Below are positions 3,457-43,367 of a stretch of DNA of 64,000 nucleotides, in pieces. The stretch spans positions 3,816 to 67,815 of the forward strand of contig SFEH01000005.1 in NCBI GenBank assembly GCA_004557315.1. The letters are read 5' to 3'. The position numbers were made by a program, and so were the translations under genes. The DNA is from Bacteroidales bacterium. Its GTDB lineage: Bacteria; Bacteroidota; Bacteroidia; Bacteroidales; UBA3663. Position 1 is the first letter of the stretch, and every line of letters starts with the position of its first letter. The notes under the pieces are model-generated. The model was not told the origin of the DNA. It was given only the letters and a program-made list of their open reading frames with translations, and did not search any database.

Positions 3457-4951
3457 TGCTACTCCTGTTTATTGTGAGACATCAGCCTCTTTAGGCTGCC
3501 GAATAATCATGATCGGGTTACCAGACACGGCAGTAAAAGAGAGCAGAGACAGAATTGAGAGTGCGTTTCGTGAGGCGGGATTGCGTTTCCCGCGTCATCA
3601 GATTACCATCAACCTTGCGCCTGCCGATGTGCGCAAGGAGGGTTCGCTGTATGACGTGCCCATTGCCGTGGCCATAATGGCTGTAGGTCAGATAATCAAG
3701 ACCGACAAGATCAACGACTACATGATGGTCGGCGAATTGTCGCTCGATGGCTGTGTCAAGACCGTGAAGGGTTGCCTCCCCTTTGCAATCCTTGCACGCG
3801 AGATGAAGATGAAAGGCATCATCGTGCCACGCGAAAATGCACGCGAGGCTGCTGTGGTCAATAATCTCGAAGTGCTTGTGGCAGACAACCTTCAAAATAT
3901 TATAGACTTCATGAACGGCAAGTCGGAACTCGAGCGCGTTGAGGTCAATACCCGCCAGCTCTTCTATGCTGCCGAAAACAACTTCACAGCCGACTTTGCC
4001 GATGTCAAGGGGCAGAATGCCGTGAAACGCGCTTTTGCCATTGCTGCCAGTGGCGGACACAACCTCATCATGGTGGGTCCTCCAGGTGCGGGCAAGAGCA
4101 TGATGGCAAAATGCCTGCCTTCCATCCTTCCTCCGCTGTCGCTTTCCGAAGCCCTTGAGACCACCAAGATACATTCGGTAGCCGGATTGAGATCAGCCTC
4201 TGGTCTCATCACCCAGCGCCCTTTCCGATCGCCCCATCACTCGATATCAAGTGCTGCATTGATTGGTGGCGGTCAGAACCCTATGCCAGGAGAAGTGTCG
4301 CTTGCTCACAACGGAACGCTCTATCTTGATGAGCTTCCCGAGTTTTCGAGAAGCGTGCTCGAAGTGCTGCGACAGCCTCTTGAAGACAGACAGATCACTA
4401 TAGCCCGTGCCAAGAACACCGTCGTCTATCCTTCGTCGGTCATGCTAGTCGCAAGCATGAACCCCTGCCCTTGCGGCTATTATACTCATCCCACCAAGCA
4501 GTGTACATGTACGGCTATGCAGGTGCAGAAATATCTTGGCAGGATCTCTGGCCCTTTGCTCGACCGGATAGATCTGCAGATTGAAATAGCGCCACTGTCG
4601 TTTGATGAGATGAGCCAGACGACGGCAAGCGAGCCGAGCACGGCAATCCGTGAACGTGTGGTGAAGGCAAGGCAGAGGCAAGAAGAAAGGTACAGGGATC
4701 ATCCGCTGATTCACTGCAACGCGCAGATGACCTCTGCACAGATCCGCGAATACTGTCAGCTCGATGACAGGTCGATGAGGGTGCTCCGTAACGCAATGTC
4801 CAAGCTCGACCTCTCTGCTCGTGCCTACGACCGCATACTCAAGGTGGCACGCACGATAGCCGACTACGAGGGTCTCGACCAGATAACATCGACACACATA
4901 GCCGAGGCCATCTCCTATCGCAACCTTGATAGGACCAATAGAGGATATTGA
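3416..4951 (+). CDS. yifB: YifB/ComM family Mg-chelatase-like AAA ATPase
   Basis: N-terminus MVVKTVSAALQGIDA..., Walker A GPPGAGKS, MNPCPCGY cysteine block, C-terminal ARAYDRILKVARTIAD. Overlaps the upstream gene by 41 nt. Confidence 0.92.
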   Translation: MVVKTVSAALQGIDATPVYCETSASLGCRIIMIGLPDTAVKESRDRIESAFREAGLRFPRHQITINLAPADVRKEGSLYDVPIAVAIMAVGQIIKTDKINDYMMVGELSLDGCVKTVKGCLPFAILAREMKMKGIIVPRENAREAAVVNNLEVLVADNLQNIIDFMNGKSELERVEVNTRQLFYAAENNFTADFADVKGQNAVKRAFAIAASGGHNLIMVGPPGAGKSMMAKCLPSILPPLSLSEALETTKIHSVAGLRSASGLITQRPFRSPHHSISSAALIGGGQNPMPGEVSLAHNGTLYLDELPEFSRSVLEVLRQPLEDRQITIARAKNTVVYPSSVMLVASMNPCPCGYYTHPTKQCTCTAMQVQKYLGRISGPLLDRIDLQIEIAPLSFDEMSQTTASEPSTAIRERVVKARQRQEERYRDHPLIHCNAQMTSAQIREYCQLDDRSMRVLRNAMSKLDLSARAYDRILKVARTIADYEGLDQITSTHIAEAISYRNLDRTNRGY

Positions 4952-11437: not shown

Positions 11438-13330
11438 TCACCTGCCCATCAGGACGAGCAGTATGTTGATGTCGGCAGGTGAAATGCCTGGGATTCTCGA
11501 TGCCTGTCCGATGGTCTCTGGGCGAATCTTCGAGAGTTTCTGTCGAGCCTCTATCGTGAGTTGCATAAGCGAATTGTAGTCGATGGTCTTTGGCAATTTG
11601 ATGTTCTCGAGTCGCTGAAGCTTGTCGGCTATCATGCGTTCGCGGTCGATGTAGCCCGCATACTTGATGCGTATCTCTGTTGCCTCGATGATCTCTTCGC
11701 GTCGGTTAGGGATTGAGTCGAGCAGTTCCTTCAACTCTGGAATGTATTCGGCAAGCAGGAGGATTGAGAGCTGTGGGCGATTGACGAGCGAGATGAGTCG
11801 GCAGCCTTCCTTGAGTGGAGTCTCGTTGAGTGCGACAAGAGTGTCGTTGAACGAAAGTTTCACGTGGAACAATTCGCAGAAGCTGATGATCTTCTCGATC
11901 CATTCTTTCTTCTCGACCATCAGGTCGTAGCGTTGCTGGTCGGCAAGTCCGATGGCATAGCCTCGCGGAGTGAGACGCATGTCGGCATCGTCCTGTCGGA
12001 GAAGGATGCGGTATTCGGCACGGCTCGTGAACATGCGGTATGGCTCATCGACACCCTTGGTCACAAGGTCGTCGATAAGGACGCCGATGTACGACTCGTC
12101 GCGACCCAGTGTGAAAGGCTCCTTGCCCTGTACTCGCAGGCAGGCATTGATACCGGCCACCAAGCCTTGTCCGCCTGCTTCCTCATAACCCGTCGTGCCG
12201 TTGATCTGTCCTGCGAAATATAGATTATCGACAAGCTTCGTTTCAAGAGTGTGCAGAAGCTGGGTTGGGTCGAAGAAGTCGTATTCGATGGCATAGCCAG
12301 GGCGGAAAGCCCTGGCATTGGCGAGAGCAGGTATCTTGTGGAGAGCCTCCATCTGAATGTCGATAGGAAGCGATGACGAGAAGCCATTGAGATAATACTC
12401 CTGGGTGTCGTTGCCTTCGGGCTCGAGAAAGAGCAAGTGATGATCCTTGTCGGCAAACGTCACTATCTTGGTCTCGATGCTCGGACAGTAGCGAGGGCCT
12501 ATGCTTTGGATCTGTCCGTTGTAGAGCGGAGAGTCGGGCAAGCCTCTTCGAAGTATGTCATGAACCTCCTCGTTGGTCTGAATTGTCCAGCATGGCATCT
12601 GCTGAAGCGACTTATGTGCTTGATAATCAAGGAAGGAGAACTTATGAAAATCCATTTCTCCATCCTGTCGTTCGGCTTTGCTGAAGTCGATTGTCTTGCC
12701 GTCGATGCGTACGGGTGTCCCTGTTTTCATGCGTGAAGTGCTGAATCCCAGTGCTTTAAGCTGTTCTGTTAGCCCATAGCTGGCAGGTTCGCCCACTCGT
12801 CCGCCCTCAATCATGGTTCGTCCGATGTGCATCAGACCATTGAGGAAGGTGCCGGCTGTGAGCACGACTGTCTTGGCATTGAACTGCACGCCCATCTGCG
12901 TGACAGCACCCGTGACTTTGAGTTTCTGCTCCTCCCCTACCCTCTCGAAGAGGAACTCGCTGACAGTGTCCTGCCAGATTGAGAGGTTGGGGGTATTCTC
13001 GAGCACCTTGCGCCAAGCCCAGATGAACTTGCCGCGGTCGGACTGTGAACGAGGGCTCCACATGGCAGGACCCTTTGAGCGGTTGAGCATGCGGAACTGG
13101 ATGGAGGTCTCATCGGTGATCTCTCCCATCTTTCCGCCAAGGGCATCGATCTCTCGGACGATCTGTCCCTTTGCTATTCCTCCCACTGCGGGATTGCAGC
13201 TCATCTGTCCGATCTTGTTCATGTCCATTGTGATGAGGCAGGTGCTTGCTCCCATGCGGGCAGCAGCATGAGCTGCCTCGCATCCGGCATGTCCTGCGCC
13301 GATCACCAATACGTCATAGTCGAAAGTCAT
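11438..13330 (-). CDS. mnmG: tRNA uridine 5-carboxymethylaminomethyl modification enzyme MnmG (GidA)
   Basis: FAD-binding N-terminus MTFDYDVLVIGAGHAGCEAA; 630 aa; GidA C-terminal region. The track ORF is extended 60 codons upstream of the ATG at 13330. Confidence 0.93.
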   Translation of the reverse strand: MTFDYDVLVIGAGHAGCEAAHAAARMGASTCLITMDMNKIGQMSCNPAVGGIAKGQIVREIDALGGKMGEITDETSIQFRMLNRSKGPAMWSPRSQSDRGKFIWAWRKVLENTPNLSIWQDTVSEFLFERVGEEQKLKVTGAVTQMGVQFNAKTVVLTAGTFLNGLMHIGRTMIEGGRVGEPASYGLTEQLKALGFSTSRMKTGTPVRIDGKTIDFSKAERQDGEMDFHKFSFLDYQAHKSLQQMPCWTIQTNEEVHDILRRGLPDSPLYNGQIQSIGPRYCPSIETKIVTFADKDHHLLFLEPEGNDTQEYYLNGFSSSLPIDIQMEALHKIPALANARAFRPGYAIEYDFFDPTQLLHTLETKLVDNLYFAGQINGTTGYEEAGGQGLVAGINACLRVQGKEPFTLGRDESYIGVLIDDLVTKGVDEPYRMFTSRAEYRILLRQDDADMRLTPRGYAIGLADQQRYDLMVEKKEWIEKIISFCELFHVKLSFNDTLVALNETPLKEGCRLISLVNRPQLSILLLAEYIPELKELLDSIPNRREEIIEATEIRIKYAGYIDRERMIADKLQRLENIKLPKTIDYNSLMQLTIEARQKLSKIRPETIGQASRIPGISPADINILLVLMGR

Positions 13331-38349: not shown

Positions 38350-40392
38350 ATGAATTTTAAGGGAATCGCAGTTTGTCTTTTTTTCTTTGTGCTTGGTTCT
38401 TGCCTGAAAGCTCAGGACTATGTCTATCCGGCCTTGCCTTCAGAGATGTGGGGCATCGAGATATTCAAGGAGCAGGAACAGCAGATGGTCATCGACGAGA
38501 GTTCCTTCATGCCACAGGGCGCTCCTTCGATCGGTGACACCTATGCCAGATATGAGCAGAATCTTGACTTGTTCAATCTGTACAACGACAGTATATATAT
38601 TGATTTGCCTACCGAGGATTGGGTTCAGATGTTCCGCCGCCGAGCCCGCACTCATGCTGCCATCTACAAGGAGAACAACAAGAACCTTACAGCAGTCAAC
38701 AAGTTCTTTGCAGCGGGCAACGTGCCCGACCAAGCTTATGATTTAGTCTATCACTGGTGTGCACACATGCTGTACAACAAGGTTTACGACATCTTCCTGT
38801 GCGAGGAGATGGTGAATCTCATCATGCCTCATTACAGCGAGATCCCCGACGACGAACATCTTGTCCTATGCTATCTTATGCAGGGAATATGCTTCTATCA
38901 GTGTTATCGAATGGGAGAGAGCGGTTCGGAAAAGAAGTCGCTCGACTATTTCAGGAAGGCACTCGAGTTTTCCAACGATTTCGCTCGTTTCGAAAACCCG
39001 CTCAACCGCTATTACCTGTTGTTGGCTTATTTCAACATTATTGTGCTCCACACCCAGCGAGGAACAATCTCGATGGAAGAGAGTCTGGAACTGGCAGAGA
39101 AGATGCGGTCGATTCTCGATAAGCCCGAGAGCCGCAAGATTCTGAATCAGGACAAGAAATTGGCAGAACTGGCCGACTGGGTCACAGCGATGTACAGTTT
39201 CCGTGCCATTACCGCCTATATCAGCCGAGGCGAAGAAAATCCGGCTTTGCGCGACCAGCTCTATGCCTTGTATTGCGATGCAAAGAAGGAGATCGGACTG
39301 AAACCAGCCGATCCGACTCGCTACTACACCAATCTTGAGTACGACGATTGCGTCATCGAGGCATATATGGGACATATCACCTGGGATGAAGCATACGACA
39401 AATTCATGCGTCTTTCCGAACATGACCCCTTCATTGAGACAAAGAAAGGAGAGCTCATAGTCAAGGTTCACTATGTGTACAACATCTATTCTTGTTTCAC
39501 CGAGCTTCTCGACAAGACAAGCCTGACATTTGAGCAGAAGAGCCAGATACTGAAGGAGCATATCGAATTGGCATACGACATGCTGCCAATGCTCGACTAT
39601 AAGGTCTATCCTTATGAGATAGGTCAGATCCTGTCCAACATCATCTGCGACGAGAAGGCACATCGCTATATCGACGAATCGGAGCTTGTCGATTTCATGT
39701 TCCGTCCGTTCGTCATGGAGCAGCCTACCACCTTCGTCCATGTCTCGATGGTGGCCGACTTGTCGCGCATCCTTGCCACGGCACTTGTCGAATACCGCCC
39801 AGGCTTCTTCATCGGAGTGCCTGGATATGAGACTACCAAGGACGTGAAGGCAAAGAAAGACGAGCTCATCGAGTTCATCTATCAGGCTGCACTCTATCAC
39901 GATTTCGGCAAGATCAACATGCCTACCATCATTGGCAACAGCTATCGCCGCATCAACGACCATGAGTATGGAATCATCAAGATCCATCCTGTCCTTTCTG
40001 CTCGCATCCTCGACTCCAATCCAGTGTTGAAGCCATATAGCGATGTGGCGCAAGGACATCATAAGTGGTACAATGGCAAGGGCTATCCATATTCGTTCAA
40101 CAACCGTCAGTCGCCTTATTTCTCCATCATCTGTCTTGTCACTATGTGCGACTGTATGGATGCAGCCACCGAGAATATCAGCCGAAACTACCATTCGACC
40201 AAGACTTTCGAGCGACTGATGCGCGAATACGACGATGCCGCTGCTGCCCAGTACCATCAGGCACTCCTGAAGTTCCTGAACACTCATCCCGAGACCTATC
40301 GCCAGATGAAAGCCTGCATCACCGAGGGCCGCTATTCACAGTACATCGAACTGTATAAGAAATATATCGAGAAGCATTTCCTCACGGATTGA
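38350..40392 (+). CDS. HD-GYP-type HD domain protein with N-terminal signal/lipobox and ~470-aa helical (TPR-like) region
   Basis: MNFKGIAVCLFFFVLGSCLKAQ. C-terminal HVSMVADLS...AALYHDFGKINMP...HPVLSARIL...GHHKWYNGKGYPYSF...MCDCMDAAT matches the HD...HHExxDGxGYP layout with substitutions. Confidence 0.8.
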   Translation: MNFKGIAVCLFFFVLGSCLKAQDYVYPALPSEMWGIEIFKEQEQQMVIDESSFMPQGAPSIGDTYARYEQNLDLFNLYNDSIYIDLPTEDWVQMFRRRARTHAAIYKENNKNLTAVNKFFAAGNVPDQAYDLVYHWCAHMLYNKVYDIFLCEEMVNLIMPHYSEIPDDEHLVLCYLMQGICFYQCYRMGESGSEKKSLDYFRKALEFSNDFARFENPLNRYYLLLAYFNIIVLHTQRGTISMEESLELAEKMRSILDKPESRKILNQDKKLAELADWVTAMYSFRAITAYISRGEENPALRDQLYALYCDAKKEIGLKPADPTRYYTNLEYDDCVIEAYMGHITWDEAYDKFMRLSEHDPFIETKKGELIVKVHYVYNIYSCFTELLDKTSLTFEQKSQILKEHIELAYDMLPMLDYKVYPYEIGQILSNIICDEKAHRYIDESELVDFMFRPFVMEQPTTFVHVSMVADLSRILATALVEYRPGFFIGVPGYETTKDVKAKKDELIEFIYQAALYHDFGKINMPTIIGNSYRRINDHEYGIIKIHPVLSARILDSNPVLKPYSDVAQGHHKWYNGKGYPYSFNNRQSPYFSIICLVTMCDCMDAATENISRNYHSTKTFERLMREYDDAAAAQYHQALLKFLNTHPETYRQMKACITEGRYSQYIELYKKYIEKHFLTD

Positions 40393-40517
40393 GAAGGCAA
40401 AAAATATGCAAAAATATGTATATGATTGGATTTCATGATGGATTGCTATTGTTGTCACCCATTCACAGCATCAATGATATTAATACCGCATCTTCTCGAC
40501 ATGCAAAACGTTTTTTT

Positions 40518-40549
40518 AAAATCGCATCGAGTTAACAGTTAACGTTAAC
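40518..40549. repeat. GTTAAC-rich repeat copy A (aaaatcgcatcgagttaacagttaacgttaac)
   Basis: 32 nt identical to copy C (40976-41007). Its last 28 nt are the inverted complement of copy B, with 1 mismatch. Confidence 0.95.
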
Positions 40550-40612
40550 ACCCTTTTTCATGGTGATGGACAGGCATGAGAAGCGGGTGATGTGCGGTTG
40601 TCGGGGAGTTAA

Positions 40613-40637
40613 TTTTTTTCCCTCGCGAGGAAAAAAA
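40613..40637. repeat. Near-perfect 25-bp palindrome T7-CCCTCGCGAGG-A7
   Basis: tttttttccctcgcgaggaaaaaaa, read directly. Lies inside the A-B segment; a second tcgcgag follows at 40643. Confidence 0.9.
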
Positions 40638-40687
40638 TCTTGTCGCGAGAAGTACCTTGAGAGGTGTTGGTTGAAGAGAGCTGGAGC

Positions 40688-40715
40688 GTTAACGTTAACT
40701 GTTAACTCAATGCGA
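40688..40715. repeat. GTTAAC-rich repeat copy B (inverted orientation)
   Basis: The reverse complement of gttaacgttaactgttaactcaatgcga is tcgcattgagttaacagttaacgttaac, against tcgcatcgag... in copy A. Confidence 0.95.
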
Positions 40716-40975
40716 ATGTGAATTACATCAAGACTCATCTTCGACAGCAAAGCACCATCGCCAGCAAAGCACCTTCAAACATCCACACCCCAACATCTTC
40801 ACTCCTTCATCTCTCAAGGTATTTCTTTTCTGTAATGCTACTAAAAATATTTCTGCTAAAATTGTTTCTGCTATATAAATATATAATAATATAATTTTAA
40901 ACTATTAATATGCGCGCGAGCGCGATATATAATGTATAAAATAACGTTAACCCTCTCGCAATCATTGAAATAAAC

Positions 40976-41007
40976 AAAATCGCATCGAGTTAACAGTTAA
41001 CGTTAAC
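40976..41007. repeat. GTTAAC-rich repeat copy C (direct with A)
   Basis: Exact 32-nt match to 40518-40549. Confidence 0.95.
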
Positions 41008-41196
41008 GCCTTTCGGGTCAGCTTGAATTATTTGATGAGAGCAGTAGTGTTCTCGCGTTTTCAGTTTATAGTTAGCGCAGCCCAAAAGAACTTTAATATC
41101 TATACCAGTTACGAACGTTTGGAACAATTGACTGTTCTCAACCTTCAGTTCTGGTTGTCAAAATTAATTTGCTGACTTTTGATTTCTATAAAGCAT

Positions 41197-41250
41197 AAAA
41201 CAATGCACCGGCTGTCTTTGCATCTGCAAGGCAGTTGGTGCATTGTTTTT
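41197..41250 (+). terminator. Strong hairpin plus U-tract in a gene-free region (orphan or bidirectional terminator)
   Basis: acaatgcaccggctg / cagttggtgcattgt form a 15-bp stem. Its two G-U pairs form only in the plus-strand RNA. Flanked by A4 upstream and T5 downstream. Confidence 0.65.
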
Positions 41251-41481: not shown

Positions 41482-43326
41482 TCAGCGCTTGGCAGGCTTT
41501 GCGTCAAACTCGGCCTTCTTCTGCTCGTAGTAGCGTTGCATGACGTAGAAGGCGAGTTTCCTCTGGCCGGTGTTGGATACAAGCCCCTTGCGATTGAACC
41601 AGTCCTGGACATCAGACAATGGTCGGCGAGGAGAGAGGAAGTCCTTGAGGATCCATGGCGAGAGGCCAGAGAGGCCGTCGATCTTGTCCATCATCTTTAG
41701 GCCTTCGATATAGAGATCCTCTTGGAACTCTTCGCTGAAGCGGACGTTCTTGTTGGCATGCCAGCCAGCGACTGCACCACCGCCGAATTCGCTCACGATG
41801 ACAGGCTTGTCGTATGGCACCTCCCATGTCATCTTGGCTGCATCCTGGGTGTCGCGATACCAGCCGACATACTGGTTGAATGCCACCACATCGACATATT
41901 CGTTCATGTTGTCCTGCAGGCGGTTGTGATAGTTGGTGGCAGAAGTCACCTCCATCGCCATGCTGATGAGACGAGTGTCGTCGAGCGAACGGGCGAACTT
42001 GGCAAGCGAAGAGAGGAAGCGGTCGCGAGGCTCACTATGAGGAGTCTCGTTGGCTATGCTCCAGATGATGACGTTGGCACGGTTTTTGTCGCGGCGTATC
42101 ATGTCGCCAAGCTGACGTTCGGCATTCTTATATGTGTCGGGATTCTCCCAGGCGATGGTCCAGTAGCAAGGAATCTCGCTCCACACCATGATGCCCATAC
42201 GCTCGGCTTCGCGCACAGCATGTTCGTTGTGAGGGTAGTGAGCCAGACGCACGTAGTTGCAGCCCAGCTCCTTTGCCCAGTTGAGCAATGTGCGAGCATC
42301 CTCGGCTGAATGAGCACGACCTTGGCTGAAGGCTTTTTCTTCGTGGATGCTGACACCGCGTAGGAAGATGTGCTTGCCGTTGAGGAGAATCTTCTTTCCT
42401 TGGGTCTCAATGCAGCGGAAGCCTATCTCGTCGGTGAGCACCTCATTGCCCTTGGCAATCTCAACATCGTAGAGCTTCGGGTTTTCAGGACACCATAGCA
42501 CAGGCTTTGCCTTGAATGAGATGCTGGCGCGTCCGTCGGCATCGGTCACAACCTTCTGGGCAATCTTGAGTTCAGGGATGCGAACTTCGATCTCAACGCC
42601 TTCCTGTGGCTTGTTGAGACTGATCCAGCCATAGATATGCTGCCAGTTCTTCTTGTCGAGCTGGATGCTGTAGTCCTGGATGAAAGTCGTCTCGACAGGC
42701 ACGAGGAGCACATCGCGAGTGATGCCGCCGTAGTTCCACCAGTCGAAGATATTGGTAGGAATGGCTTCTGGATGGCGCTTGTTATCGACCTTCACAATCA
42801 CATTGTTCTGTCCTTCTTTCAGAGCATCGGTGATGTCGAAGTTGAAAGGCGTGAAGCCACCGAAGTGAGTGCCCTGCTTCTTGCCGTTGACATAGACCAC
42901 AGCTTCGTAGTTGACAGCGCCGAAATAGAGCAGCATGCGCTTGTCGGCTTGTGGCTTATAGTCGAAGGTGCGACGGAACCATACAGTGCCCTCGTAGAAG
43001 AAGAGACGTTCGTCCTGAATGTTCCAGTCGCCAGGGATGTCCATCTGGTCGGTGGTGTCGAAATTGTATTCTACCAGTTCGAGCGGAGATTTCTGATGAG
43101 CATCGAGGAAGAAGCCCCAAGGAGATTCTTTCATTCGGTAGTCGTAGAAGCCGATTTCCTGCTGGTCGATGATGTAACGCCATTTTCCGTTGAGCGAAGT
43201 CACGTCCTGACGGCCATAGATGTTGCCGACGAGAGGAATCTCGGTCGATGCTTGAGGTTGCTGTGCATGAAGCCCCGCAAGGGAAACGACAGCAAGCAGA
43301 GCGGAGAGAATGTAGCGAATTTTCAT
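41482..43326 (-). CDS. GH2 family glycoside hydrolase
   Basis: Signal peptide MKIRYILSALLAVVSLAGLHAQ. GH2 sugar-binding, Ig-like and TIM layout. NYVRLAHYPHNEH, NRANVIIWSIANE, WSEIPCYW. Confidence 0.87.
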   Translation of the reverse strand: MKIRYILSALLAVVSLAGLHAQQPQASTEIPLVGNIYGRQDVTSLNGKWRYIIDQQEIGFYDYRMKESPWGFFLDAHQKSPLELVEYNFDTTDQMDIPGDWNIQDERLFFYEGTVWFRRTFDYKPQADKRMLLYFGAVNYEAVVYVNGKKQGTHFGGFTPFNFDITDALKEGQNNVIVKVDNKRHPEAIPTNIFDWWNYGGITRDVLLVPVETTFIQDYSIQLDKKNWQHIYGWISLNKPQEGVEIEVRIPELKIAQKVVTDADGRASISFKAKPVLWCPENPKLYDVEIAKGNEVLTDEIGFRCIETQGKKILLNGKHIFLRGVSIHEEKAFSQGRAHSAEDARTLLNWAKELGCNYVRLAHYPHNEHAVREAERMGIMVWSEIPCYWTIAWENPDTYKNAERQLGDMIRRDKNRANVIIWSIANETPHSEPRDRFLSSLAKFARSLDDTRLISMAMEVTSATNYHNRLQDNMNEYVDVVAFNQYVGWYRDTQDAAKMTWEVPYDKPVIVSEFGGGAVAGWHANKNVRFSEEFQEDLYIEGLKMMDKIDGLSGLSPWILKDFLSPRRPLSDVQDWFNRKGLVSNTGQRKLAFYVMQRYYEQKKAEFDAKPAKR

Positions 43327-43359
43327 AGCGATAAAAATTATGTTTGTGTGTATTTTCTG

Positions 43360-43367
43360 CAAAAATA
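43360..43367 (-). promoter_or_regulatory. -7 box TATTTTTG (minus strand) upstream of GH2
   Basis: Reverse complement of caaaaata. Lies 34 nt upstream of the ATG at 43326. Confidence 0.45.

Follow-up and report, generated by a model that had tools for sequence, protein, structure and literature searches.

The stretch of Bacteroidales DNA analysed here, 64 kb long and hereafter called the window, contains an intergenic gap of 1.09 kb between two convergent genes, one encoding an HD-domain protein (38350-40392, forward strand) and the other a GH2 family glycosidase (41482-43362, reverse strand). This gap hosts a short repeat, which we call R, in three copies arranged in direct-inverted-direct order (Table 1). 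Copies A and C are identical at 32 of 32 nt, and copy B is the reverse complement of the 3'-most 28 nt of A with a single mismatch (CATCGA versus CATTGA); 138 bp separate A from B and 260 bp separate B from C. Similarity extends somewhat further, with the direct repeat A/C reaching 38 nt at 95% identity, the complementarity of B to A and C covering positions 40686-40722, and the inverted pairs measuring 35 nt at 89% (A/B) and 35 nt at 91% (B/C). An exact 19-mer core, GTTAACAGTTAACGTTAAC, is common to the three copies and found at no other site within the 64 kb; with up to three mismatches allowed, the window contained three sites, as compared with none in 100 dinucleotide-preserving shuffles. 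Each copy holds three GTTAAC hexamers, and 10 of the 12 GTTAAC sites of the window fall within the triple-repeat unit. The two sites outside compare with 3-3.5 expected under higher-order Markov models, a depletion that mostly reflects a general depletion of TTAA, so that we make no claim of restriction avoidance for this hexamer. A sequence-only reading of this region had already described the three repeats, their spacing, their GTTAAC content and the convergent flanking genes, and all these measurements were reproduced here; its interpretation of the arrangement as a candidate invertible segment or two-segment shufflon, with a MITE as the fallback, fared differently, as detailed below.

Table 1 Sequence features of the triple-repeat unit and its margins in the window.
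Feature	Position	Strand	Basis or remark
Bases CAAAACG adjoining the left edge of the unit (7 nt)	40505..40511	+	Allele comparison
Whole tripartite unit: R(+), linker 1, R(-), linker 2, R(+)	40512..41007	+	Block recurring elsewhere
Repeat copy A, AAAATCGCATCGA + GTTAACAGTTAACGTTAAC	40518..40549	+	Repeat and core search
Linker 1 (seg1), conserved block ...GTGAAAATTTTG.T.CC.CGCGAGGAAAAAAA	40550..40687	+	Unit alignments, 6 lineages
Palindrome T7-CCCTCGCGAGG-A7	40613..40637		Repeat search and lineage alignment
IR2 left arm, second inverted repeat bracketing copy B	40648..40666	+	19 nt, 89%
Repeat copy B, inverted	40688..40715	-	Repeat and core search
Linker 2 (seg2), AT-rich	40716..40975	+	Sequence and lineage/strain alignments
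IR2 right arm	40808..40826	-	Inverted-repeat search and folding of the unit
Repeat copy C, direct relative to A	40976..41007	+	Repeat and core search
Right extension GCCTTTCGGGTCAGCTTG	41008..41025	+	Absent from repeat-less alleles (L038 and L042 resume at 41026)

The two linkers delimited by the repeats have features of their own. Linker 1 carries the sole occurrence in the window of the motif TTYCCWCGCGAGGAAA, as well as the T7-CCCTCGCGAGG-A7 palindrome, whose presence between A and B had been pointed out before. Alignment with other lineages showed that this palindrome is a lineage-specific form of a conserved block, CC.CGCGAGGAAA, which is non-palindromic in two relatives of the unit (L017 and L006). 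Its T-run lies upstream and its A-run downstream whichever strand is read, so that it does not qualify as a canonical intrinsic terminator. In linker 2, a (TATAA)n-like tract that varies in length among strains surrounds a conserved GC-rich core, GCGCGCGAGCGCG (40912-40924), and there is one additional GTTAAC at 40946. The right extension GCCTTTCGGGTCAGCTTG, next to copy C, is also present in single-repeat copies found elsewhere (L024 and L027 match positions 40970-41024 at 94.5%) and is not common to the unit at the second locus described below.

The 496-bp block is a discrete unit, sharply delimited by the outer edges of A and C. When a 22-kb metagenomic contig (L064) was compared with the 64-kb window, the sole high-identity match linked its positions 12020-12529 to 41007-40512 of the window, with 94.1% identity over 510 nt, and this copy of the unit was flanked by genes encoding an OPT transporter and a xanthine/uracil permease. 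Identity to the window ends where the core of copy C ends. Two further contigs match parts of the block, one matching 40512-40776 at 96% (L028) and the other 40821-41007 at 98% (L025). At this OPT locus we found the full unit in 17 contigs from different samples. At the locus of the window itself, for which relatives were picked by proteins 99% identical to the HD-domain protein, 11 contigs carry the unit and are colinear with the window.

These contigs bear directly on the proposal that the region is an invertible switch, in which recombination between A and B or between B and C would flip a segment and turn some output on or off. The geometry fits, since inverted repeats of 28-35 bp surround segments of 138 and 260 bp. 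Nevertheless, both segments lie in the orientation of the window in 11 of 11 contigs of the window locus and in 17 of 17 contigs of the OPT locus, and the internal order and orientation are also fixed in at least five other Prevotella lineages, as far as can be read from assemblies, which represent majority states in which rare flipping could go unreported. Contig ends are frequent inside the unit or at its margin and orientation heterogeneity can produce such breaks, but they are accounted for by the presence of several copies of the unit and by its AT-rich tract of variable length. As the sequence-only reading had itself conceded, there is no TAnnTTTG box on either strand inside the unit (40512-41007), and Pfam searches of 35 window ORFs, 10 further ones lying outside that scan, brought up neither a recombinase nor a transposase domain. 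The two TAnnTTTG boxes of the intergenic gap (40409-40416 and 41159-41166) are both outside the unit and on the minus strand, and because the flanking genes converge, no gene is placed for switching. The inverton or shufflon interpretation consequently finds no support in the comparison, and we consider an invertible switch highly improbable.

The search for other copies of the repeat that the sequence-only reading had proposed was fruitful, with the 32-mer being found at further loci. When one genome per species was scanned, the exact core turned up in four Prevotella or Bacteroidales MAGs, with no fewer than 1-4 loci in each, counts that are lower bounds because MAGs are incomplete; a few single matches in unrelated phyla are probably due to chance. 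A metagenome scan yielded nine more contigs, from pig gut. In five lineages (L001, L006, L015, L017 and L021) the core is again present three times in alternating orientation, and their alignment with the window revealed the same succession R+, seg1, R-, seg2, R+ with matching conserved linker blocks, including ...TACGCGCGCGATATATAAT... at the centre of linker 2. R is ~32 nt long and its 21-23-nt core (GA-GTTAAC-A-GTTAAC-GTTAAC) is almost invariant: across lineages, the cores of A and B are 98-100% identical, as compared with 49% for seg1, 33% for seg2 and 33-35% for the flanks, and the core of copy C is exact in every unit but one. Since the search for loci demanded just one exact core per locus, the conservation of the remaining two copies, which are exact in most units, is informative. 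Judging from these alignments, such near-invariance suggests that the core may be recognised by a protein. The alignment of whole units needs many indels, which speaks against a conserved ORF.

All repeat copies are intergenic, typically lying from a few to ~125 bases beyond a stop codon, and their neighbours are ordinary housekeeping genes that are functionally unrelated from locus to locus. In other species, two unrelated AraC-family genes adjoin full units. L006 and L017 have a common right (C-side) flank, with AraC orthologues that exhibit 78% amino-acid identity, and a different left (A-side) flank. We also considered whether a 690-aa neighbour of the L017 unit might be an orthologue of the HD-domain protein of the window, since this would make the element an ancient, syntenic one; comparison of the two ruled this out.

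Taken as a whole, we judge the triple-repeat unit to represent a new family of non-autonomous interspersed repeats, low in copy number and present in a few Prevotella lineages, with a BIME/MITE-like layout that is unusual in having three repeats. The core GTTAACAGTTAAC had no match in the literature searched. Tens of thousands of MITEs have been catalogued in Bacteroidota (PMC11602168), and the family may already be an unnamed entry among them. The MITE fallback of the sequence-only reading was thus upheld in part, by the occurrence of the 32-mer at other loci, by the presence or absence of the element depending on the strain, and by the recurrence of the 496-bp block between unrelated genes. 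The specific form given to it, a small A-B MITE accompanied by a solo repeat at C, did not hold, since the conserved mobile unit is the entire A-seg1-B-seg2-C.

The conservation of the core and of several linker blocks, together with the position of the copies directly past stop codons, might also be explained if the unit were an element serving the host in cis, either an operator array for a dimeric GTTAAC-binding protein or a 3'-end element (a terminator, an RNA-stability element or a nucleoid-protein site), that had been spread passively. The AraC-family genes beside full units in other species are consistent with this, as are some structural data. The IR2 helix, which comprises 16 pairs, is present in six of six lineages, with pairing preserved through changes on both sides in 6 of these pairs; in addition, the folding of the whole unit exceeds that of shuffled versions (z = -4.0). 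At the window locus, a fourth allele (L041, L043, L075 and L079) departs immediately past the stop codon of the HD-domain gene. Also in favour of a host role, an alternative allele has a block homologous to the conserved core of seg1 directly past that stop. Against such a role, same-species strains manage without the unit at both loci, the neighbouring genes have no functional relationship among loci, the seg1 palindrome lacks the form of a canonical terminator, and scans of the region with Rfam (at the gathering threshold and with E values up to 10) and for tRNA and tmRNA gave no match. We therefore find a host cis-element improbable; the unit between these two convergent genes is probably selfish or neutral rather than their regulator.

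The same conserved linker blocks and covarying IR2 helix could be read as traces of one or more small non-coding RNA genes inside the unit, for which a sigma-70-like sequence (TTAATA-17-TATAAT, 40905-40933) would provide a candidate promoter. Yet sigma-70-like matches are less numerous than in shuffled sequences, a promoter box of the Bacteroidetes type is absent from the interior of the unit, nothing in it matches Rfam, and apart from the stem formed by R with R we detected no conserved RNA structure in seg1. More generally, the counts of matches in our promoter and terminator scan did not exceed those of shuffles, and the single terminator-like match (41036-41055) lies outside the unit. There is, in our opinion, only a very slim chance that the unit encodes RNA genes.

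Allelic variation occurs at both loci. At the window locus, three contigs lack R altogether (L038, L042 and L076): the segment from CAAAACG, at the left edge of the unit, through 41025 is swapped for an 8-nt filler, ACAAGACA, with 40504 joined to 41026. Read as its reverse complement, this filler corresponds to the first, terminal 8 nt of an IS3-like DNA that, in another contig (L030), begins directly after 40510. As the filler matches this IS3-like terminus, we read the R-less alleles as likely deletion scars, perhaps IS-associated, and not as virgin targets. No target-site duplication is visible at the unit, the sole R-less alleles being those that carry the 8-nt filler resembling an IS scar. 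The window locus thus has R-less alleles, and no solo-R allele was seen in its contigs. The unit is dispensable, as there are same-species strains without the full unit at both loci.

The OPT locus showed a different kind of variation. In three contigs (L052, L060 and L061), one clean copy of R lies between the sequences that flank A on the left and C on the right. This solo-R allele is either the product of recombination between A and C or a pre-integration site, and it has the structure of the A-C deletion product that the sequence-only reading had suggested looking for. The outer edge of copy A is variable as well, with three different left flanks abutting it: the permease side described above; an island carrying T5orf172-ResIII (helicase) and Eco57I/MmeI-like restriction-modification genes; and an AbiE toxin-antitoxin island, for which the joint lies within the left part of R, as seen in L059 and L026. 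No second R was found in the visible part of the islands beside copy A. The DUF6577 gene of the AbiE island was also traced in longer contigs from other bacteria, where it adjoins a tRNA gene without R, which made this island uninformative as a route to an integrase and a second R.

The coexistence of clean solo and full alleles at the OPT locus is what one would expect if an unlinked recombinase, of the tyrosine or serine type, used R as its core site. Together with one R, the segment seg1-B-seg2 would be excised as a circle and re-integrate at a solo R, and larger islands would use R sites as well, a logic comparable to that of integron cassettes or of the dif modules of Acinetobacter. The ends of the unit coincide with the outer edges of the direct R pair, three DNAs, two of them with defence genes, meet at the outer edge of A, and the core is almost invariant. 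R itself can be read as an asymmetric 7-nt spacer, AGTTAAC, with an inverted arm on either side (GAGTTAAC and GTTAACGC), a layout that would suit a recombinase core site, and a host recombinase acting in trans would make a linked enzyme unnecessary. However, active sites predict inversions between A and B and between B and C about as commonly as deletions between A and C, and there were none in 28 contigs and six lineages. Nor did we see tandem arrays, the visible island parts have no second R, the window locus has R-less alleles without a solo-R counterpart, and the ORFs scanned yielded no recombinase candidates. The A x C deletion is equally well explained by ordinary homologous recombination over 32-38 bp. 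We accordingly regard site-specific excision and re-integration as unlikely. Its most developed form, with R as the site of an unlinked host-encoded recombinase, a gene-less integrative cassette of 0.5 kb circling between solo R copies and defence islands docking at R too, appears to us quite doubtful.

We favour instead, with a probability of roughly 0.65, the interpretation of the unit as a non-autonomous, gene-less mobile repeat moved by an unnamed enzyme. R would be recognised by a DNA-binding transposase or recombinase whose gene lies at another place in the genome, and this trans-acting enzyme would move or copy the entire block. Solo R copies would mostly be remnants of A x C deletions, as happens with solo LTRs. 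Dispersed R copies could in turn act as breakpoints at which the genome is rearranged and foreign islands become attached to the outer edge of A, a role suggested by the three left flanks meeting A at the OPT locus and by the fact that L006 and L017 have only their C-side flank in common.

Several observations fit less easily with such a mobile repeat. Neither the scanned window ORFs nor the surroundings of the other copies yielded an enzyme candidate: Pfam searches of ~45 neighbour ORFs at ~15 R loci revealed no recombinase or transposase domain, and no Y1 transposase or RAYT gene adjoined any copy. The fetched loci contained no coding element bounded by R, and R had no match in plasmid, phage and viral-contig collections (BLAST searches and three pattern scans of viral contigs). 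Likewise, the fetched loci and the plasmid, phage and viral-contig collections contained neither an autonomous parent with the same terminal repeats nor an IS with R-like ends. The unit terminates in direct and not in inverted repeats, which is unusual in derivatives of DDE transposons, and its copy number is low (1-4 loci per genome). Folded as single-stranded DNA, R reached -3.0 to -3.8 kcal/mol, no better than shuffles (z = -0.03 and -0.57), so that a REP-like hairpin was rejected; this lack of a stable hairpin argues against recognition of the REP/RAYT or IS200 type. Finally, horizontal transfer together with homologous recombination could spread the unit without any dedicated enzyme.

Comparison of contigs thus removed a false inverton candidate and defined a compact, easily recognised repeat family for gut Prevotella, a group for which, to our knowledge, few small mobile elements have been described. 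The family marks strain-level structural variation, with full, solo and absent alleles, different DNA attached to one edge of the unit and adjoining defence genes. It also breaks metagenome assemblies and is, for this reason, useful to know for assembly and strain typing. Its near-invariant 21-23-nt core points to a sequence-specific DNA-binding enzyme, the identity of which would reveal how the unit moves.

Among known systems, invertons and plasmid shufflons resemble the unit in geometry only, through inverted repeats of similar length around segments of 100-300 bp; unlike them, it has no orientation variants, internal promoter, adjacent invertase or switchable gene. The solo allele of the OPT locus matches the loss of an interior between direct terminal repeats that is known from solo-LTR formation, a likeness limited to the deletion step, as there is no hint of reverse transcription. 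In the dif modules of Acinetobacter, pdif sites (XerC/XerD) in alternating orientation flank discrete modules, which recur in varied contexts without a linked recombinase or target duplication. The triple-repeat unit would share with them a logic only: it is chromosomal, non-coding and tiny, and R does not appear to resemble the dif consensus. If true, the recombinase-cassette interpretation would make it a chromosomal counterpart, in Bacteroidota, of the dif-module system. The unit is closer to MITEs such as the Correia elements of Neisseria and those of Porphyromonas gingivalis, being small, non-coding and intergenic, occurring at several loci with presence/absence differences between strains, possessing, in its A/B and B/C pairs, inverted repeats that measure 28-35 bp, and being presumably mobilised in trans. 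It differs from them in having three repeats, with outer ends A and C that are direct although A/B and B/C are inverted, and no visible target-site duplication; nor did the sequences searched contain a parent IS with R-like ends.

In layout, the unit is closest to BIMEs, the REP clusters of enterobacteria and pseudomonads, described in PMC2817692 as regularly spaced REPs in alternating orientations. Several differences set the two apart. A REP is an imperfect palindrome of 20-40 bp with a stem-loop, whereas R forms no stable palindromic hairpin; the sequence of R is also devoid of the GTAG or CGTC tetranucleotide tag that, according to PMC3733652, REPs carry at one end. REPs exceed 100 copies per genome, as compared with at least 1-4 loci per MAG for R; the linkers of our unit are long (138 and 260 bp), and no RAYT/Y1 transposase was found beside the copies. 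Even so, the unit consists, like BIMEs, of short extragenic repeats that alternate in orientation and are separated by conserved linker motifs, and in both cases these non-coding elements are sited at the 3' ends of genes, occur also as singles and are polymorphic among strains.

At the window locus, one strain (contig L030) carried IS3-like DNA, consisting of an HTH ORF and a split rve ORF, that began at the equivalent of window 40510/40511, the exact left edge of the tripartite unit; no right end of this element was found in L030. Its first bases are TGTCTTGTCC, and all three repeat-less alleles of the locus contained an 8-nt filler, ACAAGACA, which is the reverse complement of this start. 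This correspondence suggests that the repeat-less alleles originated by IS-associated deletion.

The units also varied internally. In linker 2, the (TATAA)n-like tract differed in length among strains (the gene-to-gene gap ranged from 1004 to 1066 bp across the variants) and, in one contig (L036), unrelated DNA joined within this tract. Among the units from other Prevotella lineages, one had an extra partial repeat within linker 1 in which the heptamer GTTAACA was expanded (GTTAACAGTTAACAGTTAACAGTTAACGTTATC), pointing to a hexamer array that can grow via slippage or duplication. Another (L017) contained, nested within its AT-rich linker 2, a long hairpin (GTAGGGGCAGACCGATGTGTCTGCCCG...CGGGCAGACACATCGGTCTGCCCCTAC) that is nearly perfect, spans about 120 nt and is probably another small repeat element. 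In one strain (L029), a 356-bp stretch present in L021 was missing; it takes in the greater part of linker 2, copy C and some 100 nt of flanking DNA, and runs to the stop codon of the neighbouring gene. This loss is an imprecise deletion that left an A-linker 1-B remnant.

Coordinates of the features observed in and around the units
Feature	Contig	Positions	Strand or orientation
IS3-like DNA	L030	5751 onward	
8-nt filler of repeat-less alleles	L038; L042; L076	5656-5663; 2264-2271; about 4193-4200	
(TATAA)n-like tract of linker 2	window (equivalents in L044-L063)	40827-40975	
Tract with joined unrelated DNA	L036	6046-6109	
Extra partial repeat in linker 1	L006	2181-2213	
Long hairpin in linker 2	L017	2618-2735	
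356-bp deletion	L029 vs L021	2317-2320 vs 620-975	L021 as reverse complement
Defence-type DNA beside copy A	L066; L059; L026	12832-17870; 5276-7282; 2-1469	
AraC-family genes abutting units	L001; L015; L006; L017	5201-6097; 1715-2611; 838-1749; 3020-3919	
Hairpin followed by T-run	window	41197-41249	minus
Related copy of this hairpin	L030	7270-7371	reverse
TAnnTTTG boxes	window	40409-40416; 41159-41166	both minus
Fourth-allele DNA	L041; L075	5548-5799; 5048-6035	

In some strains, the OPT locus, which is the second site of the unit, had defence-type genes immediately next to the outer edge of copy A. These were a T5orf172/ResIII helicase, Eco57I- and MmeI-like methyltransferase/restriction genes and an AbiEi(DUF6577)/AbiEii pair. 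In other Prevotella species, full tripartite units were adjoined by the 3' ends of two unrelated AraC-family regulator genes (41% identity, in the HTH domain only); since this family is abundant, their adjacency may be due to chance.

Several 6-bp palindromes were missing or almost missing from the whole window relative to a 4th-order Markov expectation: GTCGAC (0 observed vs 34 expected), CATATG (1 vs 14), GGCGCC (0 vs 6) and GTATAC (0 vs 5). Their scarcity looks like restriction-site avoidance. We set apart from this pattern the scarcity of GTTAAC beyond the unit (2 sites), a count accounted for by general TTAA depletion.

In the window gap, a hairpin with a 22-bp stem is followed by a T-run and most likely serves as the GH2 gene's terminator; a related copy (82%) occurs in L030. 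The only two Bacteroidetes-type TAnnTTTG boxes of this intergenic gap fall outside the unit; the one nearer the GH2 gene would, if active, send transcripts into the unit from its right side.

A fourth allele of the window locus departs from the window after 40396, with wholly different DNA directly 3' of the HD stop codon and no copy of the repeat R. This DNA opens with a perfect 36-nt palindrome, GAAAAATTTGTTTCCTCGCGAGGAAACAAATTTTTC, whose reversed form shows homology with the conserved linker 1 block of the unit. Its order of A-run, hairpin and T-run resembles that of a bidirectional terminator.
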